A DNA stretch of 64,000 bases from Chiloscyllium plagiosum (Eukaryota): NCBI RefSeq assembly GCF_004010195.1, contig NC_057719.1:32556537-32620536 (forward strand), written 5' to 3'. The notes beneath the pieces are model-generated. The model did not search any database. It was not told where the DNA came from and was given only the letters and a program-made list of their open reading frames with translations. Made by a program: the position numbers and the translations under genes. This document shows positions 4,728 through 63,555 of this stretch, piece after piece. Numbering within the stretch: the stretch's first letter is position 1; each line of letters starts with the position of its first letter.

Positions 4728-5610
4728 AGGTAAAAACAATGACTGTAGATGCTGGAAACCAGATTCTGGATTAGTGGTGCTGGAAGAGCTGAGCTGGAAG
4801 TTTGGAACTAGGGTGAGGTGGGGGAAGGGGAAATGAGGAAACTGTTGAAGTCCATATTGATGCCTGGGGTTGTAGTGTTCCCAGGCGGAAGATGAGGCAT
4901 TCTTCCTCCAGGCGTCTGGTGGTGAGGGAGCGGCGGTGAAGGAGGCCCAGGACCTCCATGTCCTCGGCAGAGTGGGAGGGGGAGTTGAAATGTTGGGCCT
5001 GTTCGGTTCCGAACTCTGCTAGTTTAAAGGTGTTCCGGAGTCCGTGTGGGATGAGTTGGTTATGGAGGCAGGCACTAAGGAAGCAAATAAACCAGCAGAG
5101 TTCGGAACCTAACAGGCCCAACATTTCAACTCCCCCTCCCACTCTGCCGAGGACATGGAGGTCCTGGGCCTCCTTCACCGCCGCTCCCTCACCACCAGAC
5201 GCCTGGAGGAAGAATGCTTCATCTTCCGCCTCGGAACTCTTCAACCCCAGGGCATCAATGTGGACTTCAACAGTTTCCTCATTTCCCCTTCCCCCACTTC
5301 ACCCTTGTTCCAAACTTCCAGCTCAGCACTGTCCCATGACTTGTCTGGACTTGTCCTACCTGCCTATCTCCTTTTCCACCTATCCACTCCACCCTCTCTT
5401 CCCTGATCTATCACCTTCATCCCCTCCCCCATTCACCCACTGTACTCTATGCTACTTTCTCCCCACCCTCACCCTCCTCTAGCTTATCTCTCCATGCTTC
5501 AGGCTCACTGCCTTTATTCCTGATGAAGGGCTTTTGCCCGAAACGTCGATTTCGAAGCTTCTTGGATGCTGCCTGAACTGCTGTGCTCTTCCAGCACCAC
5601 TAATCCAGAA
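4728..5610. mobile_element. Fold-back, internally deleted Penelope-like element with GIY-YIG C-terminus and hammerhead motif
   Basis: Inverted arms (~4790-5026 vs 5088-5325) both encode AQHFNSPSHSAEDMEVLGLLHRRSLTTRRLEEEC.IFRLGTLQP (PLE GIY-YIG end); TSD tcatgttttacaatg 4713-4727 / tcatgttttataatg 5611-5625. Confidence 0.85.
5516..5551 (+). ncRNA. Minimal type I hammerhead ribozyme motif in PLE pLTR
   Basis: CTGATGA (5520-5526), A, stem II GGGC-TTTT-GCCC, GAAA, CG, TC; palindromic ACGT at stem III; weak stem I. Confidence 0.7.
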
Positions 5611-6039
5611 TCATGTTTTATAATGCGCTGTGACTGCCCTCATGAACCCACAGCATTCGTACCAACTTAGGCTTATCTAACCATCCTTCATAGCCCCTTA
5701 AACCTTCATGGCTCAATTCATATTATAGCTCTTATCCTAACTCACCAATTCATCACCCTAAGCTCCACCTTTGCCATTCCCTCTTCATGCCAATTTAGCT
5801 AATATCCACCAAAAGCATACCTCAGGATGCTGACAGAAAATAAATTGATTTGCTAATTAATGACACTATTGAATAAACACTCTCGTTGTTACAAAAACTA
5901 TTCAGTACATTAGATTAATATATTCAACTGATCCCTTATGAAAACAAACATTTAGGTTGTTAATTCCTAATTTAAAAAACACTTCCATTCTATAGATAGT
6001 TGGAGCAATCCATCAAATTGCTCACTGTTGGCTCACAAT

Positions 6040-7320
6040 TTAGAATGTTCCATTATACTCTTAACTTGTGCCTTGTAGATGGTGGATGGTGTTTCGGTTA
6101 TCAGGTGATGAGTTACTTGCCACAGTATTCCTAATTTGTCACTTGCTCTTGTAGCAACTATGTTTATATGGGACTCTAGTTGAGCATCTCGTTAATGGTA
6201 ATTCCTAGGATGTTCATGGTGGCTTGAGGTGGGGTGGGGGTGGGGGGTGGTTTCAGTCATGGTTAGATCGTCTCTTCACCTTGGTGGTGGACATTGCAAT
6301 TCCCCATCCAGAGTCGATTTTGTGCCCTTTCATTGTCAGTGCTTCTTCTAGGGGTTAGGCAGAAATGGGTACTGCAGATGCTGGAGATTAGAGTCAAGGT
6401 TAGGGTGGTGCTGGAAAAGCACAGCAGGTCAGGGAGCATCCAAGGAGCAGGAAAATTAATGTTCTGGGCAAAAGTCCTTCATCAGGAATTCCTTTTGCCC
6501 GAAACGTCGATTTTGCTATTCCTTGGATGCTGCCTGACCTGCTGTGCTTTTCCAGCACCACTCTTCTTCTAGGGGTTGTCCAACATGAAGGAGTACTGAT
6601 TAATCGGAAAGAGAGCAGTACATGTTAACCAGCAGTTGGTTTCCTTCCCCATATTTAACCTGAAACCTTGAGACTTTAAGGTGTTTGGAGTCAATGTTGA
6701 GGACTCCAAAGCAACTTTCTGTCGACTACATAGCACTGTGCTGCCCCTTCTGCTGGGTCTGTCCTGCCACTGGGATAGGATATATTAGGGATAATGATGG
6801 TGGTGTCTGGGACATTGTGAGGTATGAGTCTGTGAGTATGACTATGTCAGATTGTTGCTTGACTAATCTGTGAGATAGCTCTCCCAATTTTGGCAATAGC
6901 GCCCAGGTGTTGGTAAGGAGGACTTTGCAGGGTTGACAGGGCTGTTTCTACTGTTGTCCTTTCCGGTGCCAAGGTGGATACCAAGTGGTCTGTCCAGTTT
7001 CATTCCTTTGTTGAGACTTTGTAGCGATTGGTACAACTGAGCAGCTTGCTAGGCCTTTTTGGACAGCAGTTGAAAGTCAACTACATTGCTGTGGGTTTAG
7101 AGTCTCATGTAGGCTAGACCTGGTGAAGATGGAAGATTTCCTTCCCTGAAAAGCATGAGTGAGCTAGATGAGTTTTTCTGACAATTGGCAATGGCTATCA
7201 GCAGATTTTTAATTCCGGATTTTTAAAATTGAATTCTGCCGTGATGGAATATGAACCCAGGTGTCCAGACCATTATCTGAGTTCTAGCATTAACAATACC
7301 ACAAGGCCATTGCCTCTCTT
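6040..7320 (-). mobile_element. Old internally deleted CR1/L2-like LINE with tRNA-like 5' head (same family as 38815-39935)
   Basis: 6040-6215 is the reverse complement of ~39290-39450; 7010-7320 is the reverse complement of the SINE head at 19940-20200; interrupted by a hairpin PLE. Confidence 0.6.
6357..6562. mobile_element. Hairpin mini-PLE (inverted pLTR only), family A
   Basis: Arms gtggtgctggaaaagcacagcaggtcagg... / ...cctgacctgctgtgcttttccagcaccac; perfect 15-bp TSD cttcttctaggggtt 6342-6356 / 6563-6577. Confidence 0.85.
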
Positions 7321-8414
7321 ATTCTGAGCACTGCAAACCAGTTAAAAGTAACAGGACAAAGGAATCTCAACAAATAAGAAAAACAGAAGCTCAAAAATGA
7401 CCGTTCAACTACCAGCCACAATGCTATCAATAACCTCCACTCCAAAAGCCGTAATACTCAACTATCTGCTCTTTACTAACAATCAGAGATGGTACCATAA
7501 CTTATTCAATCTTCTTTTCTTTTGGATTCACCTCTTATCACTGATCTGCATGTATCAGTGTTGCATTATTTCTTCTTCCATTTCGTTATTAATAAACACA
7601 CTGTTTCTCATAAGGTGTAAAAGCCTGGTTAAATTAGCTCCTTTTAAATCATAAGCTCTTCTGGATCTGGGGGAATAGTCCTCAGTCACCAAATAATCTC
7701 AGACCCTTTCCTTACCTCATCTCTACTCTTGTGCCTTTGTTCCTTCCAGAAACAAAGAACAATCACCTGGTCAGAATTAGTGCAGGAGTGTGAAGCACAA
7801 GAGAAACAAAAGATAATAATGAAGAAAGCAGCTACTCAGTCTCCCTTGTGCAGCCAGAATGACAGGCACAGACACTGTCTATACTTTAAGAGGAGAGCAT
7901 AGAGGTGGGAACTGAATGGCTTGCTCGGCCATTTCAGAGGGCAATTGAGAGTCAACCACATTGCTTTGGTCAAGGCAGGAGGAAAGGGTATTACAGGATC
8001 AAAAATCCTGAAAAGGATTCCCCCTGGTTCTCAAATTGCCAAGTAAAACTGATAGCTTTTCAGAACTTGAGGAGGCTTGGGATCCTAATATCCCTTAACT
8101 AAATCCATCAACTCTTAAAAGGTTTTCACATATGGCTGTAATAACTGAAAAAAGCTGTCAGGAAAATTACTTATGCTTTTCATCTGTCCTAATGTCATTT
8201 GCCAAGAAATAAAAATGCATTCTTTCCACATACTAGGTTAAGCCTTCAATGGCAGGATCAAACAAGTCAACCTTCCCTGCCAGAAATGCTTACCCCAACT
8301 CAAAGACAATAGTTGTGAGTGAATTTCTTCAGCATGCTTTTCTCTTGTCACCACATGTAATGCCTCCACAGAGGCTGATATCCCATCACCAAGTCACCCT
8401 TTATTTACACATTA

Positions 8415-8734
8415 TTAGATTAGATTAGATTACTTACAGTGTGGAAACAGGCCCTTCGGCCCAACAAGTCCACACCGACCCGCCGAAGCGTAACCCACCC
8501 ATACCCCTACATTTATCCCTTTAACCTAACACTACGGGCAATTTAGCATGGCCAATTCACCTGACTTGCACATCTTTTGGAGTGTGGGAGGAAACCGGAG
8601 CATCCGGAGGAAACCCACGCAGACACGGGGAGAATGTGCAAACTCCACACAGTCAGTCGCCTGAGGCGGGAATTGAACCCGGGTCTCTGGCGCTGCGAGG
8701 CAGCAGTGCTAACCACTGTGCCACCGTGCCGCCC
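8415..8734 (-). mobile_element. HE1 SINE, full length
   Basis: Minus strand gggcggcacggtggcacagtggttagc (box A) ... gggttcaattccc (box B), V-SINE core, (taatc)n tail. Confidence 0.92.
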
Positions 8735-8741
8735 ACATGGA

Positions 8742-9043
8742 GAGTCATAGAGTCAGACAATTGTACAGTATGTAAACAGATCCTTCAGTCCAATGTGTTC
8801 ATGGCAAACAGATCTCCTACATTCATCCAATTCAATTTGCCAGCTTTTAGCCCATAACCCTCCAAACCCTTCCTATTCAAATACCCATTCAGATGCCTTT
8901 TAAATGTTGCAATTATACCAGCCTCCACTATTTCCTCTGGCACCACCCTCTGTGTGAAAACATTGCCCCATAGGTCTCTTTTCTATCTTTCCCCTTTCAC
9001 CTTAAACCTATGCCCTCTAGATTTTGACACCCCTACCCTGGGG
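8742..9043 (-). mobile_element. CR1/HER1 LINE 3' fragment
   Basis: Matches the 3' ends at 17453-17760 and 45336-45640 (agtcatagag tail; ccagcctccactatttcctctggca). Confidence 0.8.
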
Positions 9044-9347
9044 ATCTTGACACTGATCCAACTTCCTCACAGCCAGCTCTTGGAGTGAACAAACCTCTGA
9101 CACTCCTGTTAACATCTCTAAGCCAGAGCAAACTGATTGAAGTGATTAACAGCCTCATATCCATGTGGTTGACCTGGCTGATCTTGTTAAATCACTACAA
9201 AGGCAAGTTCATGAAAGTGGGATTAGAATAGTTAGGTGATTGTTTTTGACTCAATGGGCTGAGGGCCTTTTTTCTGTACTGTAGACCTCTATGACTCTAT
9301 GATAATTTTCTTTATTGAGGAAAATCTATTGTCGTCCTTGGCCTAGC

Positions 9348-11397: not shown

Positions 11398-11401
11398 TAC
11401 A

Positions 11402-11512: not shown

Positions 11513-11517
11513 AATTA

Positions 11518-13164: not shown

Positions 13165-13880
13165 GTTTAAAAGCAAAGTACTGTGAATGGTGAGATGGAG
13201 AATTAAAACAGAAAATGCTGGAGAAATTGAGCGGGTTTCGCCACATCTTTGGCAACTGAAACAAAATTAACACTGATTCCAATATACTGACCCTTCTTTG
13301 GAACACTTCCAAATCATTTGAAAGTGATTGGGTTGGGGAGAGGGGAGAGAGGACATGATAATTAAATGTAACAAGCTAACAGAAAGGGAAGAAATGCTTC
13401 ACAATTTGAAGGTGTCGAACTCAATATTAAGTCCAGAAGGCTGTAAAGTGCCTAGTCTGATGATGAGATGTTGTTCCTCCGGTTTGCACTGTGATTCACT
13501 GGAACACTGCAGATGCCGCGTATAGATTAGATTACTTACAGTGTGGAAACAGGCCCTTCAGCCCAACAAGTCCACACCCACCCGCCAAAGCACAACCCAC
13601 CCAGACCCGTTCCCCTACATTTACCCCTTCACCTAACACTACAGGCAATTTAGCATGGCCAATTCACCTGACCTGCACATTTTTGGACTGTGGGAGGAAA
13701 CCGGAGCACCCAGAGGAAACCCACGCAGACACGGGGAGAATGTGCAAACTCCACACAGACAGTCACCTGAGGCAGGAATTGAACCCGGGTCTCTAGCGCT
13801 GTGAGGCAGCAGTGCTAACCACTGTGCCACTGTGCTGCCCACTGCGGCATGTGGGCATGCGATCAGGATGCTGTGTTAAA
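13165..13880 (-). mobile_element. Degraded PLE 3' fragment, interrupted by HE1
   Basis: 13330-13510 is highly similar to 15230-15405 (GIY-YIG C-terminal region on minus strand); pLTR-like gaaaatgctggagaaattgagcggg. Confidence 0.65.
13523..13840 (-). mobile_element. HE1 SINE, full length
   Basis: Near-identical to the 8415-8734 copy; boxes A/B and tail present. Confidence 0.92.
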
Positions 13881-14829
13881 GCATTAACTTTGCTACTCCT
13901 TTTCTGCTCCTTCTGAGCCAATACATGAATTTTCTAGTTCAAAATTATCCACTAATAGATTGTGTCATCCAAACTGCAATTATCACATCCAACAAAGTTT
14001 GTGGTGTCTGTGCAACTGTGGGTGGATTCTCTGCTCGCCTGCTCCTCCCAGCTAACAGTTGATAGGGAGACTGCCCAATAAAAGGTGGTGGTCCTGCAGC
14101 CACGTTGTACTAGAAGCAATGTTCAGTTACTAAGACCGTGACTTCCACTCCATTTACAAAAGAAGACCTGCCTTCCAGAACTGCCAGCCAATCTAATTGA
14201 GTAGCAGCTCTGTAACAATTAGATTCAAATGCTGGCCATTGCTGGGATCACAGACAAAACTCAACTAAGTGGAGGTTACCTTCAAAGCAAGAGTCGAGAG
14301 TGCGGTGCTGGAAAAGCACAGCAGGTCAGGCAGCATTGAGGAGCAGGAGAATCCAATGCAAGTTGGGGCTGGCAGTGTGGCTTGGCTGACCCAAAGACTA
14401 GAATCAGCCCAAGACAAGAGGGGGAGCCCAATGGCTGACAACAGATTCTGAAACACCAGCAAACCCTCAAAGACTGAGGAACATCCTGTATAACTCTTAT
14501 TGAACAGACATTATCAGTACTTGCAGGCCAAAGGTTCTGCTGCAGTGGTAGGACCTGTGGATAGGGTGTAGCAAATATTCAAAAGCATGTGTCAAAAGCA
14601 GATAGGCTCAAATCTATAATACCTGTGTACTTAGAGCTATAAGGCTGTCTACTGAAAAGTCCTATGAAAGAGATGGTTGAGTTTGATGCAGTCTAATTAA
14701 AGTACAATGGTAGAGTCTGATAAATATTACATTGCCTTGTGTTCAATAAGGTTGTGTTGGAAATTCCCCTGACTCTTGTCCCCTTTGTCTTTCTCACTGC
14801 ATAACAAGCCTGAGTTAAAAAGGGTTACT

Positions 14830-15832
14830 GCGAACAGGTCAGACAGCATCCATGGAGAGAATGCAAGCTTATGTTTCACATCTAGATGACTCTTCATCAG
14901 AACTGAAGGGGAGTGTGGAGGGGGGCAGCATTGATACTGTAGTTTGGTGGGAGAGGTTGTCAGGGGATTGGTGTAGAGGTTGAATGCTGGTGGAAAAAAA
15001 TGTGATAGTTCAGATTAAGTGATCGGAATGGGAGAATGGTAGAACAGTGGTGTGTCTCCTGACAACCACCTGGTGAAGGAGCGGCGCTGTGAAAGCTAGT
15101 GCTTCCAATTAAACCTGTTGGACTATAAACTGGTGTTGCATAATTTTTAACTTTGTACACCCCAGTCCAACACCAGCATCTCCAAATTGTGTCTCCTGCC
15201 AGACTTAGAAAGGACAGACAGTCCTACTGGTGAGGGGGGAGAGAACATGATAACAGAATGTAACAAGCTAAAAGAAAGGGAAGAAATGATTCACAATTTG
15301 AAGGTGTTGAACTCAATATTGAGTTCAGAAGGGTGTAAAGTACCTAGTTTGAAGATGAGATGTTGTTCCTCCAGTTTGCACTGTGATTCACTGGAATACA
15401 GCAGCATGCCGTGGACAGACTTGTGGGTACACAAGTAGGACACTGTGTTAAAATGACCAACTGTGGGAAGATTAGGGTCCTGCTAATGCACAGGTCAGAG
15501 GTGTTCCTCAAAGTGGTCATTCAGTCTCCAATGTAGAGTAGACCACATTGGGTGGCAGTGGATACAATACACAAGTTTGGAGGAGGTACGGGTGAACTGC
15601 TGCTTCACCTGGAAAGACTGCTTCACCATGGAAAGGTCCTTGGATGGTGAGCAGGGAGGAATTGAAGGGGCAGTTTTGCACCTTCTGCTGTTTCATGGAA
15701 AGGTGCAGTGGAGAATGAGGCACAGTGTTGGTGTCTGTGGAATGGACTAGGATGTCCCAGACGGAATGAGTCCTGTGAAATGCAGACAGGGGGAATGAAG
15801 GGAAGATGTGTTTAGTAGTGGCATTCTGCATC
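14830..15832 (-). mobile_element. PLE 3' fragment (GIY-YIG region plus pLTR), degraded
   Basis: Minus translation ATTKHIFPSFPLSAFHRTHSVWDILVHS, then frameshifted GIY-YIG remnants; hammerhead-like ctgatgaagagtcatctagatgtgaaacata on minus strand ~14870-14900. Confidence 0.7.
15062..15187 (+). mobile_element. Single pLTR+tail insertion, PLE family B, nested in another PLE
   Basis: Matches the arms of 35482-35702; TSD tgtgtctcctg 15051-15061 / 15188-15198; hammerhead core degenerate (ctggtga). Confidence 0.8.
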
Positions 15833-25754: not shown

Positions 25755-25760
25755 AAGTGC

Positions 25761-25972: not shown

Positions 25973-26011
25973 CTTAGTTTAGGTTTAACCTTGTTTATGT
26001 TGTATTTCAGG

Positions 26012-26218
26012 AGAAAGTGAGGTCTGCAGATGCTGGAGATCAGAGCTGAAAATGTGTTGCTGGAAAAGCGCAGCAGGTCAGGCAGCATCCAGGGACAGGA
26101 GAATCGACGTTTCGGGCATAAGCCCTTCCTGAAGAAGGGCTTATGCCCGAAACGTCGATTCTCCTGTTCCCTGGATGCTGCCTGACCTGCTGCGCTTTTC
26201 CAGCAACACATTTTCAGC
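26012..26218. mobile_element. Hairpin mini-PLE, family A, young
   Basis: Near-perfect ~85-bp inverted arms around 26130; perfect 16-bp TSD tatgttgtatttcagg 25996-26011 / 26219-26234. Confidence 0.9.
26125..26160 (+). ncRNA. Minimal hammerhead ribozyme motif
   Basis: CTGAAGA 26129-26135, A, GGGC-TTAT-GCCC, GAAA 26149-26152, CG, TC. Confidence 0.65.
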
Positions 26219-29505: not shown

Positions 29506-29532
29506 TGTAGAGATTGTGTTCCCTCATCTAAA

Positions 29533-34069: not shown

Positions 34070-34295
34070 AGTATGTAAGTTAGCTCGCTGAGTTGGAGGG
34101 TTTGTTTTCAGATGTTTCGTCACCATGACTCGGTAACATTCGTGAGGGTTTCTGGTGAAGCGCTTCACTGGAGACTCTCACTGATGATGTTATCTAGTCA
34201 TGACGATGCAACATCTGAAAACAAACCTTCCAGCTCAGTGAGCTAACTGACATAATTTTCATCAACCTGAGCTACAAATCTTCTCAAACATCGCT
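34070..34295. mobile_element. Hairpin mini-PLE, family C, degraded
   Basis: Arms tatgtaagttagctcgctgagttggagggtttgttttcagatg / catctgaaaacaaaccttccagctcagtgagctaactgacata, plus right-hand tail tcaacctgagctacaaatcttctcaaa; similar to 46934-47350; TSD eroded. Confidence 0.75.
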
Positions 34296-35481
34296 AGCCC
34301 ACAAATTCTTAGGTCTGGATGAATTGTAGCCCAGGCTGCTTTGGGAAAATGAGGGAGCAAAGTAAAGTCTCTGTCTCAAATTTTTAATTCCTCTCTGGCC
34401 ACAGGAGAGATTCCAGAGGACTGTAGAACAGCTAAGTTGTTCCACATTTCAGGAAGTGCAGTAGCGCTGAGCCAGGCAATAATAGAGCAGTAAATCTCAC
34501 ATCAGTGGCAGGGAATCTATTGGATAAAAATTCAAAGAGGAGAATTTTCACTTGAAACATCAAGGTTTAATCAAGGATACTTAGCATGGTTTGTCAAAGG
34601 GAGGTCACACCGAAAAAATTTGTTTTGAGTTTTTTGAGATTTGGTCTATAGATGAGGGTAGTGCTGTTGGTGTAGTTTATATAGTTTTCAGTAAAGGCTT
34701 TGACCGGTTCCCACATGGGATGGTGAAAGACACCAGCAGCATATCAGAACCTCAAGAGAGTTGGGGACAGAGTTGAGTGTAGTGGCCATCACGAAGGAGA
34801 AGGTGCTGGGGAAGCTGAAAGGTTTGAAGGTGCATACATTACCCAGATTAGATGAACTACACCCCAGGGTTCTGAAGGAGATAGCAAAGGAATTTGTGGA
34901 GATATTGTTGGTGACCTTTCAGGAATCACTTGAGTCAGAGAGGATTCTGACTCATGCAAAACATTAATGTAACACCACCTTTTTAAGAAGGAAGTGGGGC
35001 AGAAGACAGGAAACTATAGGTTGGTTAGCTTGGCCTCCATTATAATGGATAAGATTGCAGTGTACTTGGAAATGTATGGTAATATAGGGCTGAGTCAGCA
35101 CAGCAGAGATAACTAGTTTTTAATTAGTAAGGGGATCAAGGGTTACAGGCAGAAGGCAGGAGAATGGGGTTGAGAAACATATCATGCTATGATTAAATGG
35201 TGGAGCAGACCTAATGGGCTGAATGACTTCTTTCTGCTCCAATACCAAATGGTTTGATGGTCAAAGGAAACTGCTGAAGAAGCTAAAGGCAGATGGAATC
35301 TAGGGTGATTTGGCAAGTTGAATCCAACATTGACTTCATGGTAAGAGTCAGAGACTGGTGGTAAAAGGCTGTTTGTGTGACAGGAGGCTGGTGTGCCTTG
35401 GTGTACCACAGGAATCAGTGCTGGGTCCCTTACCCTTGTGATATATATGAAGGAAATAGAAGAAACTCTGAGGTGGGATGA

Positions 35482-35702
35482 TTCGGAGATGCCGGTGTTG
35501 GACTGGGGTGTACAAAGTTAAAAATCACACAACACCAGGTTATAGTCCAACAGGTTTAATTGGAAGCACACTAGCTTTCGGAGCGACGCTCCTTCAGCAG
35601 GTGATTGCACAATCACCTGATGAGGGAGCGTCGCTCCGAAAGCTAGTGTGCTTCCAATTCAACCTGTTGGACTATAACCTAGTGTTGTGTGATTTTTAAC
35701 CT
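35482..35702. mobile_element. Hairpin mini-PLE, family B
   Basis: ~90-bp inverted arms around 35608; 13-bp TSD tgaggtgggatga 35469-35481 / 35703-35715. Confidence 0.9.
35613..35649 (+). ncRNA. Minimal hammerhead ribozyme motif
   Basis: cac, CTGATGA 35617-35623, G, GGAGC-GTC-GCTCC, GAAA 35638-35641, GC, TA, gtg; palindromic AGCT stem III; stem I cac/gtg. Confidence 0.72.
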
Positions 35703-36227: not shown

Positions 36228-36409
36228 AGATTAGAGTGGTGCTGGAAAAGCACAGCTGGTCAGGCAGCATCCGAGGTGCAGGAAAATCGACGTCTCAGGC
36301 AAACGTCGATTTTCCTGCTCCTCGGATGCTGCCTGACCAACTGTGCTTTTCCAGCATCACTCTGATTTAGACTCTGATTTCCAGCATCTGCAGTCCTCAC
36401 TTTTGCCTG
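36228..36409. mobile_element. Hairpin mini-PLE, family A (tail on right)
   Basis: Inverted arms around ~36298; duplicated tctgaaatat 36208-36217 / 36410-36419; hammerhead core deleted at the apex. Confidence 0.8.
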
Positions 36410-39935: not shown

Positions 39936-40306
39936 CCTGCATGAAAACAGCAGTGAAAGTGGTTTCAAACACTTGTGATTGAAGTGTTGTGAGGAGCAGG
40001 GGTGCGCATCTTTGCTCACCATTCAAATTAGAAGCCATAGTCGCCTAACAATCACATTGCATCGTTGCTGCTTCCAAACCCCCTCAGTAAGCTTCTTTCT
40101 GTCAGTCACTCTGATCACCAGAGATCCATGACAAAGAGTGCAGAACAATCATAGAATTGTTACAGTGTAGAGCAGGCCATACACTCCAGGTGTGCCTGCT
40201 CCAGTTCTACAACCTAGTGACAATCTTCTACTTTTTTTGCCCATCCCTGCATACCATTTGAATCCAAGTAATTATCCAATACCCTCTTGAATGCCTGTTG
40301 AATAAG

Positions 40307-41191
40307 GAGAAAGTGAGGACTGCAGATGCTGGAGATCAGAGTCGAGAGTGTGGTGCTGGAAAAGCACAGCCGGTCAGGCATCATCCGAGGAGCAGGAGAA
40401 TCGATATTTTGGGCATAAGCTCTTCATTGGGAATGAGGCTTGTGCATGGGGGTTGAGAGATAAAAGGATGAGGGGGTGGGGTTGGGAGGATGTAGCTGGG
40501 AAAGCGATAAGTGGATGAAGGTAAGGGAGAAGGTGATAGGTCAGAGGGGGCGGTGCTGGACGGGTCCAGAGGGTGGTGAAAATTGGAGGCTTGGGACTGG
40601 GATAATGTGGGGGAAGGGGAAATGATGAAGCTAATGAAATCCGCATCTGTCCTGTGTGGTTGTAGGATCACAAGGCAGAATATGAGTCATTCCTCTTCCA
40701 GGTGTTGGATGGTAATGGTTTGGTGGTGGAGGAGGCCCAGGATCTGCATGTCCTTGATGGAGTGGGAGGGGGAGTTGAAGTGTTCAGTCATGGGGCAATG
40801 GAGTTGGTGGATTGGGTGTCCCAAAGATGTTCTCTGAAACAAACTGTAAAAAGGCCCCCGATCTCCCCGATGTAGTAATTAACATTCTCAGACTGACCAA
40901 TTTGACAATCATGGTCTTACGTTATAATGGGTTTCAATTGATTACGGGTCACTAGTGTGTTCAATTTGTTAATTACTGCAGCAGAGAAGGACACAAATAT
41001 AAAGCTCTGATTCACAGTTGGTCAGAAGTCTAATGTATCGAGGGCAGATCAATTGACTATAAATTGGCATTTATTATAATTGAAAATTATTGCAACAGCG
41101 GAAAGAGAAACATACCAGGAGTAATTGAAGAGACTTCTGCATACTCGGTGCAATGGATGCAGTAGATGACATTGGTAGAGGTACAGGTAAA
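40307..41191 (-). mobile_element. 5'-truncated PLE (family A) containing a 269-bp copy of nearby host DNA
   Basis: pLTR/tail at 40307-40435, GIY-YIG end 40600-40875, PLE sequence resumes 41146-41191; TSD ttgaataag 40298-40306 / 41192-41200. Confidence 0.8.
40877..41145 (+). repeat. Direct duplicate of 42705-42975
   Basis: cattctcagactgaccaatttgac...gagacttctgcatact present twice, about 8 substitutions. Confidence 0.95.
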
Positions 41192-45335: not shown

Positions 45336-45640
45336 GAATCATAGAGTCTCAGAGATGTACAGCACAGAAACAGACCCTTCAGTCCCATTAGTTTATGCCA
45401 ACCAGGCATCCTAAATTAATCTAGTCCCATTAGCCACCACTTGTCCCATATCCCTCAAAACACTTTCTATACATCCATCCAGATGCCTTTTAAATGTTGT
45501 AATTGTACCAGCCTCCACCACTTCCTCTGGCAGCTCATTCCATACATGCACCACCGTCTGTATGAAAAAGTTGCCCCTTCGGTCCATTTTAATCTCTTTC
45601 TCCTCTCACCCTAAACCTATGCCCTCTAGTTCTGGACTCT
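45336..45640 (-). mobile_element. CR1/HER1 3' fragment
   Basis: Reverse-complement match to 44590-44886. Confidence 0.85.
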
Positions 45641-46830: not shown

Positions 46831-46971
46831 CTCATCAAATGAAAGCAGTCCACTTCTTACTTCCCTACTTCCATGACTCATGATTTGGAGCAATTTATAA
46901 TGAGGTTATTAAAGTTTAGGAAGAAGGTTCATCTGGATGTAAATTTGCTCGCTGAGCTGGAAGGTTCATTT

Positions 46972-47011
46972 TCAGACGTTTCATCACCATACTAGGTAAT
47001 ATCTTCAGTGA
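46972..47011 (-). ncRNA. Minimal hammerhead ribozyme motif (left arm)
   Basis: Minus: tca CTGAAGA t ATTACC-tagtat-GGTGAT GAAA CG TC tga; stem II 6 bp, stem I tca/tga. Confidence 0.72.
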
Positions 47012-47233
47012 GCCCCCAGACGAAGCATTGCTGATGATTCCTGCTTTCTATTTATATGTTTGGGTTTCTTTGGGTTGGCAATGTCATTTCCTGTGATGAT
47101 GTCATTTCCTATGGTGATGGTGTCATTTCACCATCGGAAATTACATCACCACCAGAAATGACATCGCCAATCCAAAGAAACCCAAACATATAAATAGAAA
47201 GCAGGAATCATCAGCAATGCTTCGTCCGGAGGC

Positions 47234-47273
47234 TCACTGAAGATGTTACTTAGTATGGTGATGAAACGTCTGA
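47234..47273 (+). ncRNA. Minimal hammerhead ribozyme motif (right arm)
   Basis: tca CTGAAGA (47237-47243) t GTTACT-tagtat-GGTGAT GAAA (47263-47266) CG TC tga. Confidence 0.68.
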
Positions 47274-47559
47274 AAATGAACTTTTCAGCTCAGCGAGCAA
47301 ACCTACATCCAGAACCTCAACCTGAGCTGCAAATCTTCTCAAAACTCACTAAGAAGTTTCATCACTGGCAAATAAGTCAATGTGTTTCATCTTTTAAAAT
47401 TCCTCCCTTTACTCAGAAAGACTTTCCTCTCAGTGGGAAACTTTTCAAATCCCATTCTCTCTGCTGAGTGACAACTGGATTCAGATCTAATGGAAAAACT
47501 CACATAGGAGTCAACAGTTTTATTAATGATTAAGATTTGTCTCTAATTTATATAATTTC

Positions 47560-50012: not shown

Positions 50013-50252
50013 TCAGGCGACTGTGTGGAGTTTCCACATTCTCCCCGTGTCTGTGTGGGTTTCCTCCGGGTGGCTCCGGTTTCCTCCCACAGTCCAAAAA
50101 TGTGCAGGTTAGGTGAATTGGCCACGCTAAATTGCCCGTAGTGTTAGGTGAAGGGGTAAATGTAGGGGAATGGGTCTGGGTGGGTTGCGCTTCGGCGGGT
50201 CGGTGTGGACTTGTTGGGCTGAAGGGCCTGTTTCCACACTGTAACTAATCTA
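50013..50252 (+). mobile_element. 5'-truncated HE1 SINE
   Basis: Starts at tcaggcgactgtgtggag, lacks tRNA head; intact 3' end. Confidence 0.9.
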
Positions 50253-51625
50253 CATCTTAATTCAATAATTGTTGTCAGCAATCTGAGCAACAATGTACAT
50301 TTGAGAGATATAGGTTAGGGTTGGGCAAAATACAGTAAAACACCAAACCTGTGGATTTGTCTTTTTTGAGTAAATGACAAAGTAAAGTTTTTTCAGTGAG
50401 AGAGGTACATATATTGAGAATAATTTCAGCTTCTATAATTGTTTTTTTTTATTAAAACATGTATGGCTCTTCAGCCTAATTTTACTCAGCCCAGTGATTA
50501 GGCACTTCACTGGCTCACTTTAATAGCTGTGTCGTGGAGCAATAAGGCATTTGACATAAAACAATATGTTTAAACATCGCTTCATCAGATTGTTTCAGAA
50601 ATCTTTTCATTTTGTGTTTTTACTGACAATGACTGTGGAAAGGCACCCAGAGAAAAGGCAAATCGTAACACACAGTTCAAGATACAAATTCTTTTGCTAA
50701 TTTTTTTACGGTAAAGTTTTTTTTCATAGAGCTAGTGCGCAGTATTCTATTTGGTGAATTAAAACTCAGGAATACCACTTTATACCAATGAATACAATTG
50801 TCCTAAAATACTTTATGAAGAAAATGGGAAAATTAGAAAACATTTGTTTACATTGCCATAGCAATTTAGTTTCAATGACTACAATTTGTTACAGCCATCT
50901 TTTGAAAGAGAGTCTTTTGGCTGCAGTGCGCATTGAGCATTCAGTAGTGTGAAAACTTTTCTGTTCACAGATATTGCAAGATGTTCATATCAATGGCTAT
51001 TTAATGGATTTATAATCAGTGTTCTCACAGCTTACATAAGCATTATCCTTTGCTTGTTCTGATACGTACTTAAACATTAAATGTGCGTTTCTGAATAACT
51101 AGTTTACTTTTGACAATTTAAAGCAAGTTATGATTATTTTTCCCTCTAGCAGATCTTTTAAGAATTCCGTTCTGACACAAACTAATTGGGATAAAACATT
51201 AGCCATTTGCTTCATTACAGGCACTCCTTGAATTGCTGAGTATTCCCAGCAAAATCTCTTCTTTTTGTTACATATTATTCAAAATGTGTGCCTTACAAGA
51301 TGAAGGTTATCATGAGCAAATGATTGTCAGTAAAACGTGTGTGTAATCTCAGATACAGTTAAGCATGATTAAATGCTGATAATTAGGCTAAGAAGCAAAG
51401 CAAAAAAAAATTGTGGATCTGAAATTGCCAACAATTTCAATAAACAAAATGGTTAAGCAAAAATGAACTGGGCTTCAGGGAGTCATGGTCAGAACACAGC
51501 CTTGTCGAGTACAGAAGTCCTCTTTTTGTTCCCACAGGCTCTGGTAAATATTGTATTTTGTAAAACCTTGGGCTGAATTTTCCAAATCAAGGCCACTTTG
51601 GTCCATTTCTCTTTCCTGTCCCAGT

Positions 51626-52012
51626 GGGCGGCATGGTGGCACAGTGTGGGCGGCATGGTGGCACAGTGTGGGCGGCATGGTGGCACAGTGGTTAGCGCTG
51701 CTGCCTCACAGCGCTAGAGACCCGGGTTCAATTCCCGCCTCAGGCGACTGTGTGGAGTTTGCACGTTCTCCCCGTGTCTGCGTGGGTTTCCTCCGGGTGC
51801 TCCGGTTTCCTCCCACAGTCCAAAGATGTGCAGGTCAGGTGAAGTGGCCATGCTAAATTGCCCGTAGTGTTAGGTAAGGGGTAAATGTAGGGGTATGGGT
51901 GGGTTGCGCTTTGGTGGGGCGGTGTGGGCTTGTTGGGCCGAAGGGCCTGTTTCCATACTGTAAGTAATCTAATCTAATCTAATCTAATCTAATCTAATCT
52001 AATCTAATCTAA
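51626..52012 (+). mobile_element. HE1 SINE with triplicated 5' end and long (taatc)n tail
   Basis: 22-bp unit gtgggcggcatggtggcacagt x3 (51624-51689); about 9 taatc repeats 51965-52012. Confidence 0.93.
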
Positions 52013-52229
52013 ACTCAGCATGTCTGCAATTAAATGCAGGTCTGTCCAATGATGCTGACATTCTAAGAATTAATTGTTTAAAAACTAGGTGACGGTTTTG
52101 GGTGAAAGACAAGCAAGAGGAGTAGGTTGGGTGTGTGGTTAGCTGGGTGAGAGACAGATAGTTGGTAAGTAGGCCAGGGGTAGAGTCATGGGATGGGTTA
52201 GGGGGATGCAGGGAGGTGGCATTTCCGAC

Positions 52230-52420
52230 GCCCCTCCCCCAAGTCCCTCCTCCCTTCCTTTTATCTTAGCCTGCTGGACAAACTTTCCTCATTCCTGAAG
52301 AAGGGCTTATGCCCGAAACGTCGATTCTCCTGTGCCCTGGATGCTGCCTGACCTGCTGCGCTTTTCCAGCAACACATTTTCAGCTCTGATCTCCAGCATC
52401 TGCAGACCTCAATTTCTCCT
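52230..52420 (+). mobile_element. PLE family A pLTR+tail with intact hammerhead core
   Basis: CTGAAGA 52295-52301, GGGC-TTAT-GCCC, GAAACGTC; ends ctccagcatctgcagacctcaatttctcct. Confidence 0.85.
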
Positions 52421-53411
52421 ACTCCCATCCAACACTAGCATCTCCACATCACGCCTCAAGAATGTTCAACTTACCATCTTACCAAACAAGCTGACATCAA
52501 GAAATCTCAAAATGGAAATCAGAATAGATACCTGGTAGCAGCTGGTTGCTTCATAGAACTTGCTCCAAAGGACCTCCATGTTAGATACCAGGCACCAGCA
52601 TCTCAGGACATCACCCATGGGCATGTCACACATACCCATGTCTATAGACCTTGGCATTTGATATGTGTCACCCTCTAAGAATCCTCATGACAGATCTCTG
52701 ATCTACATACAGGATACTTCTGCACTTCAATACTGTGCCTTAGACTACACCAACAACTAGCATTGTAATGCTGCAGCAAGGATAGGCAACAACACCCAGC
52801 TCATGAACTGGACCAGGTGACACCTCTGGGTTCTTTGCTCACTGTCATGGAGCTTACTCACTCTGAGCGGGCCTACATGCTTACAGCATCCCTGCCTTGC
52901 GTTGCTTTGTCAATTTTTTAATGCTTTGCTCTCTCATCCAGTGCTACCAGGCTCATACCATTTTTGGACTTATCATGCCTTTCCTTGGAGATACAAAACC
53001 CTAGAAACTTGTCATGTATGTTAGCAAACCTCAGTTAATTTAAGGGAGACAGTCTTTCCTCAGGGGATCCCAACTCCGTAAGTTAGGGGCAGCCTCTGCT
53101 ACCAGCCCTGGGCCTGGCATATGGTTAGTCAGCTGTTCAGACAGGCCACAGTCAGGATACTAACATAAAGAGCTGAATGACAGGCAGCCCACAATGTGAC
53201 TCTTTCTGTGCTATTATGGGTTGTTTTCCTCCTGGAATGAGAGAAGGACAGGTATTAAAGGAGATGCAAGTGCACTGTACAGATGTTATTTTTGATGCAA
53301 ATGGGGATGAGTTCCAAATGAGTGAGTTAGGAAGCGCTGAGGGCATGGTAAGTTGTCAAGGTTGGGATGGGTGAGCGTGAGTGGGGAAGATGTTGCTGGC
53401 AATAGCAAGGG

Positions 53412-53952
53412 TTATGATGTAGAGGTGCCAATGTTGGACTAGGTGGATAAGGTTCCAAGTTACGAAACACCAGTCCAACAGGCTTATTTGAAACCATAAG
53501 CTTTCGGAGCACTGCTCCTTCATCAGGTGGAGTGAAAAGAAGCATTAAGGCACATAATATATAGGCAGAATGCACAAACGGTGAGAGTGGAGTGTCGACA
53601 AGCTGATTAATAAATATCTGCAGGTGCTCAAAAGTGTCAGACAGTGGGTAAAGTGTCAATAGTAAAGTAAGTGAAGGGGATGACCTATAATCCAATTAAT
53701 TGAGATAGAGAGATAATTACAAAAAAAATTAAAAATAATGTGGTGCTGGAAACAAACCAAATGGCTAGTAGAAGAGTTGCATGCCGTGGGTCTAACCAAA
53801 GTTACAAGTAGTCTAAAACTGTACAAACTAATTAAGGTACAGAGATCATAACAAGTTATCAAGATGATGGTGTCAAAACAGGACAGTAAGGAAGATTTTC
53901 CAGATACAGAACAGTATGATGGAGTTACATGTAGTGCGACATGAACCCAAGA
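53412..53952 (-). mobile_element. PLE family B-related 3' fragment with hammerhead core
   Basis: Minus cacCTGATGAaGGAGCagtGCTCCGAAAgctt (53498-53529); agtccaacattggcacctctacatca terminus. Confidence 0.75.
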
Positions 53953-54041: not shown

Positions 54042-56414
54042 TACAAGTGATGGGTGCGGTAGCAGAGATAGAGTAGGTGGGAGGTATTGGAGAACAGTTG
54101 GTAGCACTTATCATGGCAGAGTGTAAGACTTTGACCTTCCTCCTACAGTATTGGCCATTCCCCAGATGGCTGAAACTGCATTGATCCTTTTTGTAATATC
54201 AAGCCAGACTGACGTGGTCTGGGTTCACAGCCTCCACTGCTGGTCCTGGGGGAAGAGGAAGTCCAGCATGTATATTGTGTAAAGACTGTATCTTTTTATG
54301 TTTTTCTGTTTCTTTGATTGTGGACTAAAATGGGAGAAAGGATTGTTTTACTGACCAATCTGTGTGCAAAAGATTCCTCCACTTTTTATAGGCAAGTTAT
54401 CTGCACTTATTGTAAATATTGTATGCTGTTACTTGTTTAATCAGTGGGGGAGGTTTCGTTGAACTGGCTTCAGGAGTGTGTCCACAATAAGATTTGTTTT
54501 GGGAACAAGGAGTGGAGCGGTGATCAGTTGTCAATGACAAAAACCTCAGCCCTGCCAACAACTACAGGATTGAATCCTAAATAGCTGAATAGTTTGTGGG
54601 TAAGAATAGTATAGCCAGAAGCCTTTAGCCCTCTGAAATGGATGGTGCTACCTCTCTCTGTAGTGAAAAATATGCCTGAGGTCTGAAGAGAGCCAATTTA
54701 TTTTCCCTCATCAGTTGCTGTAAGCTGTGTCGATTAACCAGTAGCTAAGAGATTTTGCAATTTGTGAGCTAGTCATCCTGTGCCTTCTGAAAGAAAGTGA
54801 AAAGTACATGGAGGAGAGCAAAGCAGGCCAACATCTTCCCCCTGCATGCCATATCTTGGTTAAATATCAGACACCGTGTTTGGCAGATTCATATTAACCC
54901 TGTCTGTCTGTGCTCACAGAGGACTTTGGCACGGATGGGAGATCTCCTTGTCTTTTGGCAGATACCCATTAAGTGGTGAGTTGTTCTGGGAACAGCACGT
55001 GGTAAGATGAAACTTTAATTTGACAAGTGGGACAGCTTAGGAGAAGTGTAAACTTCCCAGACAATTCCCGGGTAGTTGCTGCATAGTACTTTGGAAAAGT
55101 CCCAAAAAGCATCTTTTGTACATTGTTTCGACGACTAGCTTCCAAATGGAAGATCTTGGCCCAAATTGTACAAGAGAAGAACTTGCATTTGTTACGGTCA
55201 TTGAGCATCACGCAGAAACATGCTTTGCATGTTTAGCAGAGTAAGGTAGAAACTACTGTTTAAAGAATAACCGACAGTGATCACAATGCGATTCATTATT
55301 TAATTTTATCTCTATCTAATGACCACATAATCACCTTTCAGTCCTACTGGTCAATTCAATTACAGCTTAATGTAGTTATATATTAAAGTCTATGCTCAAA
55401 CTGGCAAGCGGTTAACTTATATAACAGTCACTTTGAGACTCTGAAATGATCCAGTTTTTCTTTAATTATCCACATGCAAATTTGGTTTAAGTAATAATTG
55501 CTTATCCAATTGAATTAAACACAAATGAGGATCACTTCCAATTATAAATTGAAATTATGAAACTTTTTAAAGAGGGTGCTGAAAAAGTCAAGCAGCGCAA
55601 TGATTGAAGTAACTGTCTCATAAAGGCTTGTATATATCTGGAGCCCTAAAGCCGAATTGATCTGGAGAGAAGAAGTGAAATTCGCTCATACTGATACCTG
55701 GAATATGCTGACCCTCTTGATCCAGTGCATATTTCTTATCAAGACAGGTCTTAATCTGACTTATCCATTTTGACTTAGATACTTAAGGTGACTGTGGAGA
55801 ACAGGGCATCACTTTCAATGTTGCAAAGGACAAAATGAGTAGCTATTGTGTAGCGTTTGGGGAACCTTCTCCAAAAGATAATAGGTAACTTCTGGTATTG
55901 TTGTTGCAATTTCCAGTGGCTGGCCTTTGATTCAAAACACCATTAAATGGAGATTTATAGAACTGTTGGAGAAGTTTGAAATGACTTGTACAAAAAGTCC
56001 TGTAAAGGGGTATCGCTGGCATTGCTTCTGACCTCCAGCATGTTCTTAGTGTTTTTTTACTTCATTGTCTAAAAATAAAAGTCTTTCTGAATTATTTTAA
56101 CATGGATACAATCGCTGATGTGATGGAATTTCTGGACAATATCTATAGTTGAGACAGAACAGTTCTTTTTCGACTATGCATGCCTAATGTGTGGGGTGTC
56201 AGGAAGTAAGTTGCAGAAACAATTCACAAGATGAAATTGAAAATCCAAGCACTCATTGATAATAGAACACAGTGGGATCAAATACGAAGCAACCAATGCA
56301 ATGTGAACTTTTGATCCATCTGTCTGATCTTTTCTGAAACAGTGAGGCAAAATTAGGTTTAATGGTTTGAATAATTATCTGATGCTTAGATTAAGAGCGG
56401 AACCTGGACTGTAT

Positions 56415-56922
56415 GCCCGGAGCGGTGTCGGCCGTGGGCCCGGAGCGGTGTCGGCTGTGGGCCCGGGGTGGTGTCGGCTGTGGGCCCGGGGTGGTGTTGG
56501 CTGTGGGCCCGGAGCGGTGGTGGCCGTGGGCCCGGAGCGGTGGTGGCCGTGGGCCCAGAGCGGTGTCGGCTGTGGGCCCGGAGCGGTGTCGGCTGTGGGC
56601 CTGGGGTGGTGTTGGCTGTGGGCCCAGAGTGGTGGTGGCTGTGGGCCCAGAGCGGTATCGGCCGTGGCCCAGGGCTGTGGTGGCCGTGGGCCCAGGGCGG
56701 TATTGGCTGTGGGCCATGAGTGGTTGTGGCCCTGGGCCCAGGGCAGTATCGGCTTTGGGCCCGGAGTGGTTGTGGCCCTGGGCCCAGGGCAGTATCGGCT
56801 GTGGGCCCGGAGTGGTTGTGGCCCTGGGCCCAGGGCAGTATCAGCTGTGGGCCCGGAGTGGTTGTGGCCGTGGGCCCTGGGCAGTGGTGGACGTGGGCCC
56901 GGAGCAGAGTGTTGGCTGTGGG
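56415..56922. repeat. GC-rich 23-bp minisatellite, about 22 units
   Basis: Unit gcccggagcggtgtcggctgtgg with variants; no spacers. Confidence 0.95.
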
Positions 56923-57419
56923 TCCAGTGCATAGAAGCAGCTGTGGTCCTGTGCTCAAGATGTTTAGGGCGAGCCCGAAGTGTTGGTGAGGGAAGTCCCC
57001 CGACGTCTGAAAAGTCAACAGCAGAAAGCCTGAGGTTTTCCCAGAGAGCAGGTCAAAGCGGAGGAAACCATTCCCTGCCAGGAAGTGCAGTTAATAAAGA
57101 CTGTTGAACTTTGAACTTTATTCCTTTATTTTTCCATTTAATACTAGGAAGAACTCTCATGTTAACTTTTCACTTTATTTCTTTATTTTTCTACTTATAC
57201 TGATGCATTACTTTTAACTTTACTTCTCTATGTTACTGCTTGTACCTACATTTTGTACCTAGCTATTTTCGTACTCAAGGTGGCAGTATATGTGTGGCGT
57301 TATTGTACGCTTTTCAATGTATTCCTGTACTTCTGTACTTGAGTACATGAGACAACAAAGTTTAAATAAATCAAACTAAATTAATACACTATTCTCATTA
57401 GGGCAGCAATTTCAGAGGC

Positions 57420-58100: not shown

Positions 58101-58218
58101 TGGTACTTTTTTCCCAGACCTTATAAATTTACTTTAAATAAGAAGCTTTATTTAGTTAACAAAGCACTGTTTTTATTAGTGACTGAATGTGAGAAGAATC
58201 AATAAGACAACGCCCATA

Positions 58219-58542
58219 GGAGCAGCACGGTGGCTCAGTGGTTAGCACTGTTGCCTCACAGCGCCAGGGACCCGGATTCAATTCCTGCCTCGGTCAACTG
58301 TCTGGACTTTGCACATTCTCCCCGTGTCTGCGTGGGTTTCCTCCGGGTGCTCCGGTTTCCTCCCACAGTCCAAAGATGTGCAGGTTAGGTGAATTGGCCA
58401 TGCTAAATTGCCCGTAGTGTTAGGTGCATTAGTCAGAGGGAAATGTAAGGGAATGGTTCTGGGTGGGTTGCTCTTCAGAGGGTCAGTGTGGACTTGTTGG
58501 GCCAAAGGGCCTGTTTCCACACTGTAGGGAATCTAATCTAAT
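58219..58542 (+). mobile_element. HE1 SINE, full length (variant subfamily)
   Basis: Box A tggctcagtgg, box B gattcaattcc, core, aatctaatcta tail. Confidence 0.9.
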
Positions 58543-62427: not shown

Positions 62428-62754
62428 GAATCCCTACAGTACAGAAAGACACTATTTAGCTCATCAAGTTGCGCTGACCCTCTGAAGAGCAACCCACCAG
62501 CCAAGCCCCCACCCTATCCCCAGAACCCCACATTAACCATGGCTATTCCACCTTGGCTGCACATTCCTGGACACCACAGGACCAATTCACCCAACCTGCA
62601 TATCTTTGGACGTGGGAGGTAACTGGACCATATGATGGAAACCCATGCAGCCACAGGGAGTAAGTGCAAACTCCATGCAGACAGTCACCCAATTGACCCT
62701 AGATTCCTGGCACTGTGAGGCAGAAGTGATAACTACTAAAGCACCATGCCATCC
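62428..62754 (-). mobile_element. Degraded HE1-type SINE
   Basis: ccctctgaagagcaacccacc...acctgcatatctttggac...ggcactgtgaggcag. Confidence 0.75.
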
Positions 62755-63388
62755 TTGATATGGTGAATTCATATCAAGGATGGCAGGAACTTAACAATGT
62801 AGGATATTCCAGCTGGAACAGTAGCACATTTTTGTCTAGAGTCTATTCCTAATACCTAACACAGCCTTTGTTAAATTGATAATATGCCCTTTTTAATAGG
62901 AGAATTAAATGGATGGTTGTGCAATGTGAGGTTACCTGTGAGAATCGTGTTCATGCAAGTGATAATAATTGCTATGTCTTCAAGTAGATGAAAATAGTAG
63001 GTCCCCAATCACTATTAATGAGGCTAGTTACTGTACTGAAAACTGTTCCGAAATTGTTTCCTGAGAGAAATGGAATAGGAACCATTTGTAATAATGGCAA
63101 ACCAGTGAGATCATTTTTGTTTTATTGTGCTAACACTTTGGTTCAAATGATAAAAATCAAAAGTAATATTGGCAGGTGCTGTCCAGCTGTACATGGCAGA
63201 AAAATGTACCATGAGCTATTGAGTATTTTAATTGGATAATACATCTTAAGGTTCACAGTATTGTCAAGTTGCCCAATGTTTCCTCTCATGGTTTATTATT
63301 ACGTCTGAATCCTTTAGTATAATATGTTTTTTGTGGACATTTTAAAAACCCTGCTCTCATATTCATTATATGCCTAGGATTTTCCAGG

Positions 63389-63555
63389 AGAAAGTGAGGA
63401 CCGCAGATGCTGGAGATCAGAGCTGAAAATGTGTTGCTGGAAAAGCGCAGCAGGTCAGGCAGCATCCAAGGAGCAGGAGAATCGACGTTTCGGGCATGAG
63501 CCTGCTCCTTGGATGCTGCCTGACCTGCTGCGCTTTTCCAGCAACACATTTTCAG
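63389..63555. mobile_element. Hairpin mini-PLE, family A, young
   Basis: Same ends as 26012-26218; TSD ctaggattttccagg 63374-63388 / ctaggatttcccagg 63556-63570; hammerhead CTGANGA absent. Confidence 0.9.

Follow-up and report, generated by a model that had tools for sequence, protein, structure and literature searches.

Short fold-back insertions of Penelope-like elements in a shark genome, and a proposed two-primer reading of their junctions

How does a retroelement come to leave two head-to-head copies of its own 3′ end at a single target site? For the inverted copies and tails of Penelope-like elements this question is as old as the description of the class, and the published readings are self-priming and endonuclease resolution. 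We address this question in a stretch of 64,000 nucleotides from Chiloscyllium plagiosum (assembly GCF_004010195.1, contig NC_057719.1, positions 32,556,537 to 32,620,536, forward strand; hereafter the window, with coordinates counted from its first base). This is repeat-rich vertebrate DNA with a GC content of 35-48%, and it contains eight hairpin-shaped inserts from three element families, here called A, B and C. The best reading of their junctions, which we consider probable, is that two target-primed complementary DNAs (cDNAs) were joined in the middle of each insert. All four junctions of such a stump lie close together, in about 200 bp, so that a genome-wide count of which arm holds the loop would separate two-primer copying from snap-back copying.

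A sequence-only reading of the window had listed the eight hairpins, and a self-comparison of the window re-found the inverted pairs at all eight places. Fold-backs of 50 nt or longer with centres within 400 nt occur at nine sites, namely the eight inserts and a minisatellite at 56.8 kb, and at none in any of 20 simulated first-order Markov sequences. In order of position the inserts are 883, 206, 207, 227, 221, 181, 417 and 167 bp long, summing to 2509 bp or 3.9% of the window. Each consists of two head-to-head copies of one element 3′ end, and in all eight one arm is longer than the other by a tail of 36-47 nt; the extra length on one arm had thus been recognized correctly, with a range (34-45 nt) that needs adjusting. 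Protein matches are absent from seven of the eight, and these seven are 167-417 bp long, in keeping with their earlier description as short and non-coding; the insert at 4728-5610 has an endonuclease C-terminus in both arms. Identity between the arms of one insert spans 82-100%, which suggests that the insertion process has recurred over a long time. Eight inserts per 64 kb have a Poisson 95% interval of 3.5-15.8, and since this single window was picked for its hairpins, one per 8 kb or so holds for the selected window and is no genome-wide value.

Is each hairpin a single integration? Clear target duplications of 13-16 bp with at most one mismatch flank seven of the inserts, just as had been claimed for seven of them, and their scores are equalled by 0-4 of 1500 random boundary pairs. 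For the insert at 34070 a boundary scan finds no duplication (848 of 1500 random pairs score as high). An uninterrupted paralogue of its CR1-like host sequence, near 49360, has a 12-nt site once; the filled locus has two decayed copies of it and is 11 bases longer, which exposes a decayed duplication of about 12 bp at 34070. One duplication surrounds both arms in all eight inserts (clear in seven, decayed in one), and its length is not fixed, at about 11-16 bp. Nine target sites compared by eye have no single motif in common. The inserts are single integrations, as first proposed, and not miniature inverted-repeat transposable elements (MITEs) of DNA transposons, given one duplication per insert and unequal ends. 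We rejected the MITE class as the terminal inverted repeats are unequal (one end 36-47 nt longer in all eight), the duplication length varies, every centre differs and the copies are not uniform.

Empty sites had been expected to hold a single target copy. The paralogue of 34070 does so, and a single copy is favoured by the nearest paralogue of 36228, at 47.7 kb; three more distant paralogues of 36228, however, do not decide, as the two-copy version scores equal or higher. Paralogues of 35482 show no consistent preference (scores of 49.5 v 47.0 and 48.5 v 50.5). A two-sided paralogue of the flanks was not found for four of the eight inserts (4728, 6357, 63389 and 46934), and none useful for 26012. 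Could the hairpins instead be pairs of adjacent independent insertions, the outcome of inverted copies recombining, or fold-back artefacts that arose in sequencing or assembly? In favour of this, the 64 kb are rich in element ends (18 loci) and two inserts have identical arms, yet a single duplication runs round both arms, each insert holds one subfamily though several coexist, arm identities go down to 82% and there are paralogues with one target copy. Furthermore, the flanks are not inverted, so the inserts are no fold-back read artefacts. We find this group of explanations hardly credible.

Profiles built from window copies detect 18 element-end loci at E<0.01, the eight fold-backs and ten single-ended copies, with none at this level in a reversed control; no inverted partner lies within 1.5 kb of any of the ten. 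The same machinery thus commonly gives both fold-backs and single-ended copies. The outer ends are well defined: the tail ends on an identical CCT in all five fold-backs of family A as well as in two single-ended copies (40306 and 52277), and the ends of the short arms spread over about 12 nt at most in family A and share one column in the two family C inserts. The centres are different in all eight, even in the inserts at 26012 and 63389, which are 96-98% alike. Fixed outer ends with variable apices, the pattern suggested earlier as a mark of paired priming, are therefore what the window contains.

These observations bear on the idea of self-propagating hairpin families, transcribed and re-inserted whole in the manner of MITEs or retrozymes. 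Like MITEs and retrozymes without long terminal repeats (LTRs), the inserts are small, non-coding and hairpin-forming or hammerhead-bearing; they are also repeated, with duplications on either side. Penelope derivatives that are non-autonomous have been described (bioRxiv 10.64898/2026.07.22.740005), and the centre of the insert at 4728 could derive from a particular source locus. That said, no centre is shared among the eight, and as the near-identical inserts at 26012 and 63389 differ at the centre, a self-copying family is unlikely. The same ends also occur single-ended at ten loci, and duplications of variable length (about 11-16 bp) with unequal ends are unlike transposase products. Retrozymes form head-to-tail arrays, whereas the pairs here are head-to-head and no such array is among the 10 tandem-repeat rows of the window, so that the non-LTR retrozyme class was rejected. 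On balance we judge hairpin families of this type very improbable.

Where do the two copies meet? Centre positions were counted by hand on alignments from the first base of the hammerhead core. For the tailed and tailless arm respectively, they start at +6 and -3 (26012), +22 and +14 (36228), +10 and +35 (63389), -7 and -9 (35482), -109 and -121 (46934), about -21 in both arms (34070) and -405 in both (4728); at 6357 they start at -4 and -4 with an 11-nt gap, or at +12 with two added bases for the latter. Six of the eight centres lie at most 35 nt from the core. At 34070 and 6357 the centre is a palindrome without a loop, set on a short self-complementary site. It is the tailless arm that extends further toward the 5′ side of the element in three of the seven scorable inserts (26012, 36228 and 46934), and by 2 nt in a marginal fourth case (35482).

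The position of the loop is critical for the main competitor of two-primer joining, snap-back self-priming. Here a tail-primed cDNA would fold at its 3′ end and be copied into a second arm, which would end or be cut 36-47 nt short and be joined to the second target end, the centre being trimmed by repair or later deletion; in a variant that has been published, the self-priming takes place on an antisense template (PMC3846280, in excerpt). Snap-back explains the single tailed arm of all eight inserts without further assumption, explains at once why both arms are always of one subfamily, and predicts the loop seen in the tailed arm at 63389. Palindromes at inverted junctions in Adineta have been interpreted in this way, and the tail has been attributed to endonuclease resolution of an intermediate (excerpts of PMC3846280 and PMC8557442, respectively). 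However, the unpaired central sequence should then always lie in the tailed arm, which fails for 26012, 36228 and 46934 and marginally for 35482; a longer tailless arm speaks against snap-back because a fold-back copy cannot contain what the tailed cDNA lacks. An extra centre-deleting event would be needed in three or four of seven inserts, including the very young one at 26012 (identical arms, perfect 16-bp duplication). The loop-less centres at 34070 and 6357 would be impossible as primary products of snap-back and suit annealing between two strands, and both outer ends match in kind the measured starts of reverse transcription discussed below. Snap-back copying is a serious explanation, though in our estimation an unlikely one.

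Joining of two cDNAs should leave its trace in the junction sequences. If both nicks prime, the result would be two antisense cDNAs on opposite break ends, joinable only by short chance complementarity, as the centres show: overlaps at seven centres are 2, 3, 3, 2, 0, 2 and 2 nt, a total of 14 against 4.7 expected (P=0.002, or P=0.009 without the two least certain inserts). Overlaps between the short arm and the target at six clean junctions are 2, 2, 1, 2, 2 and 2 nt, a total of 11 against 4 (P=0.01). These figures are from a two-sided null and leave out 4728, whose centre is foreign, as well as 36228 and 34070, whose short-arm boundary was not placed independently. The tail can pair back across the short-arm end in all eight inserts with a perfect stem of 6-9 bp; of 300 shuffled tails, 4-14 did as well in seven inserts and 43 in one, and the inserts represent three independent families. 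This stem is seen in six of nine minimum-energy folds.

The following route would account for these junctions. Each hairpin would be one integration by a Penelope-like reverse transcriptase-endonuclease whose cuts are staggered by 11-16 bp, as the duplications show. Both target 3′ ends would prime copying of the element RNA, the first at the far end of the tail and the second 36-47 nt upstream, in the loop of the stem that the tail forms with sequence upstream of it, where 1-2 nt paired to the target would help this inner start. The two cDNAs would end early, mostly close to the hammerhead fold, and be joined via 2-3 nt of chance complementarity, with gaps filled afterwards. The hairpin would be made anew at each landing and not be copied as a hairpin by a family of its own. 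No insert has two tailed or two tailless arms, so under this scheme the two starts would have to be coordinated, most simply perhaps by one enzyme dimer on one RNA. A tailless single-ended copy at 14292 exists, therefore the inner site can end an insertion without a hairpin.

A biochemical counterpart is available. The Poseidon protein of Anolis carolinensis cuts and extends both target strands in vitro, and has two reverse-transcription starts that bound the tail, one of them in an AC-rich stem-loop; a dimer is predicted (PMC11167929). By analogy, both outer ends of the shark inserts would behave like the two measured starts of the Anolis element. The paired priming proposed in the sequence-only reading fits these data and is the best reading; it is also one that we infer, and snap-back plus a central deletion can leave the same junctions.

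Several points count against two-primer joining. The mechanism is deduced from end products alone, the overlaps were scored by eye against reference copies from the window, and the centre overlap at 46934 depends on an 18-nt repeat unit of the element itself. An asymmetric central deletion after insertion would also give short overlaps and might place the loop in either arm. Palindromes are unstable, and deletion of their centres is possible. The pattern of one tailed and one short arm in all eight inserts has a chance of 0.4% if primers chose freely at equal odds; it is natural under a first-strand/second-strand model, whereas the two-primer model needs an added assumption. Furthermore, the tailed arm is the longer one at 63389, as snap-back predicts, and 6357 can be read both ways; the arms of the latter are 83% identical to each other and up to 89% to other copies, hence not mutual best matches. 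Folding of the whole end is no better than that of shuffled sequences for families A and C (z of -0.76 to +0.35), compared with -2.55 and -1.79 for family B. Finally, the in vitro data are from a lizard Poseidon element, whereas family A is of the Neptune type.

What are the three families? All had been called Penelope-like, and this stands firmly for family A, weakly for family B, and by motifs for family C. For family A, protein similarity gives a firm tie to Penelope-like elements of the Neptune type: the arms of the insert at 4728 are 64-72% identical to the C-terminus of the shark proteins P0001-P0003, of which P0001 and P0003 match the RVT_1 and GIY-YIG profiles, mostly under the curated cut-offs. 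The nearest named relatives of the Penelope-like fragment in the window are from Chiloscyllium punctatum, Rhincodon typus and Stegostoma tigrinum; the window contains no intact frame with reverse transcriptase and GIY-YIG domains. A CX2-5CxxC linker before the endonuclease marks the Neptune and Nematis clades (PMC8557442, in excerpt). This motif is present in P0001, P0003, P0007 and P0008 and in 112 of 156 collected Neptune-side proteins, while the pattern missed P0002. Penelope-like elements have been reported as expanded in whale shark introns (excerpts of 10.1101/443036 and PMC8455134). The family A motif has no loci in prokaryote genomes and none in viral contigs, and four metagenome loci were rejected as chance, their matches spanning 22-25 nt only.

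Family B is weakly linked to Penelope-like elements by protein: a tblastn search gave no match to it, and the upstream frame of a diverged copy ends in LGFMSHYM-stop, resembling the C-termini of P0097 and P0113 over eight residues only. Family C is placed, provisionally, in the Poseidon type by its motifs and by its likeness to the Anolis layout: hammerhead stem II opens with an ATG, and about 70 nt further downstream lies an AC-rich loop. A 42-aa frame through its tail had three candidates in a protein search, none at E<=10, and blastx of family C against the 156 Neptune-side proteins gave no match. That Penelope-like elements carry hammerhead motifs agrees with the window, where a core-plus-stem pattern written from the motif consensus occurs at five places, all within these families, compared with 0.13 per simulated window. 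The predicted core is intact in four of the eight inserts (35482 by inspection and folding), degenerate in two and cut away in two. An Rfam scan of the window gave no hammerhead family at E<=5; minimal hammerhead motifs cleave poorly on their own (PMC4209133, in excerpt).

How much of this is new? That the architecture has precedent had been said, and there is more of it than was implied. Complex insertions with an inverted pseudo-LTR and an optional tail are typical of endonuclease-bearing Penelope-like elements (excerpts of PMC3846280 and PMC8557442), e.g. in Adineta, with an inverted copy, a 31-nt one-sided tail and an enclosing duplication of 9-10 bp (PMC3846280, in excerpt). As far as those excerpts go, the shark inserts resemble published ones in their head-to-head 3′ ends, a one-sided tail of 30-40 nt, a single enclosing duplication and palindromes or short overlaps at the inverted junction. 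They differ in that both halves are reduced to 55-200 nt in seven of the eight, so that the hairpin alone remains, in their longer duplications (about 11-16 bp), and in that 8 of the 18 ends in the window are fold-backs. In Schistosoma mansoni, minimal hammerheads that occur in pairs, one on each strand with 100-700 bp between them, were ascribed to truncated elements (PMC4209133, in excerpt). These are likewise hammerhead-bearing Penelope ends on opposite strands, in the same size range, and the excerpt mentions them in a single sentence without the tails, duplications, junctions or mechanism described here.

The Anolis Poseidon element resembles family C, in the portions of PMC11167929 compared, in its ATG where stem II begins and in an AC-rich loop that in family C holds the short-arm end. 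It prefers AT-rich targets, in contrast to the absence of a single motif by eye in our nine sites, and the paper does not link its results to inverted copies, its only 'inverted' being a blocking nucleotide (PMC11167929). Neither a two-primer model nor such hairpins in sharks were found in the openly accessible literature; subscription papers (e.g. Arkhipova 2006, Evgen'ev and Arkhipova 2005) may hold more precedent. In LINE-1 twin priming, a second nick primes a second cDNA, and a microhomology join yields an inversion within one duplication. There the first start is at the poly(A) tail and the second far upstream, so that the parts do not overlap, whereas the starts here are at most 47 nt apart and the same sequence is copied, giving a palindrome. 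The layout is already known and our elements are further examples of it, with the junctions as the informative part.

The largest insert, at 4728..5610 (family A, Neptune type, 883 bp), is a composite. Its duplication (4713-4727 / 5611-5625) is 15 bp long with one mismatch. The left arm is antisense, with a 36-nt tail (4728-4763) and a 259-bp deletion whose counterpart is 5326-5584, with GC at either end; the right arm is sense, with the whole 3′ untranslated region and a hammerhead-like core at 5520. The reading frame at 5116..5337 (+) is that of the GIY-YIG endonuclease at its C-terminal end, with 72% identity to P0003 across 60 aa, and a mirror frame on the minus strand, at about 4797-4998, holds the second copy. 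The centre (5000..5114) is 115 bp of non-Penelope sequence that starts with TGT, ends with ACA, has 27-bp inverted ends (25/27 matching) and GGCC at both flanks; no further copy was found within the window. It may be a small transposon, possibly undescribed, inserted into the apex or into the source element, or else flanking sequence read through from a truncated source. Ginger transposons have TGTNR ends, inverted repeats of 40-270 bp and a 4-bp duplication that is CCGG/CCGT or AT-rich (PMC2836005, in excerpt). In the single copy of the window, TGTNR fits one end and not the other, the inverted repeat is 27 bp, and the flanking GGCC has 4 bp but matches neither published target. The deletion, this centre and the ten single-ended ends were absent from the sequence-only reading.

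The other family A inserts are smaller. At 6357..6562 a 47-nt tail is on the left arm, the duplication (6342-6356 / 6563-6577) matches at 15/15 and the arms are 83% identical; the centre is the palindrome GGAATTCC, and the right arm has the 11-nt gap. The insert at 26012..26218 has a 36-nt tail on the left arm, a 16/16 duplication (25996-26011 / 26219-26234) and arms that agree at 84/84 aligned bases, the tailless arm extending 8 nt further inward with a centre overlap of 3 nt. At 36228..36409 a 40-nt tail is on the right arm and the duplication (36208-36221 / 36410-36423) matches at 13/14; on the left side there are 6 extra bases beside the duplication, or a gapped repeat of 17-20 bp. Its arms are 91% identical, the tailless one again extending 8 nt further inward, with an overlap of 3 nt. 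The insert at 63389..63555 has a 37-nt tail on the left arm, a 14/15 duplication (63374-63388 / 63556-63570) and arms identical at 55/55, the tailed arm extending 25 nt further inward with an overlap of 2 nt.

In the single family B insert, at 35482..35702, a tail of 33-37 nt is on the left arm, the duplication (35469-35481 / 35703-35715) matches at 13/13, the arms are 95% identical and the centre is almost blunt. Both family C inserts have a 40-nt tail on the right arm. The one at 34070..34296 has the decayed duplication (34059-34069 / 34297-34308), arms of 82% identity and a loop-less centre on AGCGCT, and it interrupts a CR1-like long interspersed nuclear element (LINE). At 46934..47350 the duplication (46921-46933 / 47351-47363) matches at 12/13, the arms are 92% identical with a hammerhead-like core in each, and the tailless arm extends about 12 nt further inward. 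An old CR1-like LINE at 33760-36530 hosts three of the eight hairpins (34070, 35482 and 36228) inside 2.4 kb, and has a paralogue on the opposite strand at about 47630-49660.

Among the single-ended copies, the tailless family A copy at 14292..14353 (-) has its first base directly behind the predicted hammerhead cut, which is what full copying of a self-cleaved RNA would give, in a single case; its candidate 9-bp duplication is no better than chance (109 of 1500). Two tailed family A copies are at 40306..40887 (-), extending into the endonuclease coding sequence, and at 52220..52420 (+), which is 98-99% identical to the arms of the insert at 26012 and for which no duplication was found. Directly after the tail of the latter, 24-32 nt at 52421-52452 resemble the family B tail (weak profile match, E 0.38). 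For family B there is a tailed copy at 15062..15187 (+), with a perfect 11-bp duplication and a start within 1 nt of both arm starts of the insert at 35482, and a diverged copy at 53414..53950 (-), 72-75% identical to that insert, with the short upstream frame. The family B cDNA ends at 15062, 35607 and 35608 are -7, -8 and -9 from the hammerhead core, which suggests a defined stop or an RNA 5′ end there. Older Neptune-type fragments and a fourth element-end family, all single-ended, are at 3284-3409, 13182-13545, 14824-15825, 32026-32170, 51180-51254 and 41144-41239; the family B copy at 15062 is nested in one of these stretches.

Some other features of the window deserve a brief description. 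The inverted pairs at 44587-45639 and 8745-9302 were rejected as fold-backs of this type, each being two CR1-like ends that face each other; such 3′ ends, which are not Penelope-like, are 450-900 bp apart at 44072-45639 and 8745-9302. The inverted site at 56.8 kb was rejected as a ninth insert: the stretch at 56409-56949 is a minisatellite rich in GC, with 23/46-bp units, several open frames on each strand and a weak inverted match. A repeat of about 300 bp, resembling a short interspersed nuclear element (SINE), has eight copies of 80-95% identity (8414-8737, 13523-13842, 23401-23706, 29523-29865, 47942-48251, 50013-50269, 51667-51983 and 58214-58542), and one copy terminates, at 51965-52012, in a TAATC microsatellite. 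The stretch at 25636-25754 resembles 5S rRNA, with an Rfam score over threshold (55.5 bits), and is probably a pseudogene or the head of a SINE. A short open frame at 63646-63762, behind a possible splice acceptor and with no match in a Pfam search, may be an exon or chance.

Penelope inserts make up eight of the nine short fold-backs in the window, and if this density is general they would supply much DNA that tends to form cruciforms, much hairpin RNA where they are transcribed, and an annotation trap. As to the latter, five of the eight give matches below threshold to microRNA families in Rfam, where the window otherwise gave generic hairpin matches below threshold and the one 5S match. We put forward a broader proposal only tentatively, as possible and somewhat short of probable. 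Coordinated two-nick priming at two fixed RNA sites may be a routine Penelope-like route and no accident, which would explain the inverted copy plus tail in Neptune- and Poseidon-type families alike and would yield a palindrome in about four of ten insertions. It may thereby be the main source of short palindromes in shark genomes, which repeat tools would file as MITEs or microRNA precursors.

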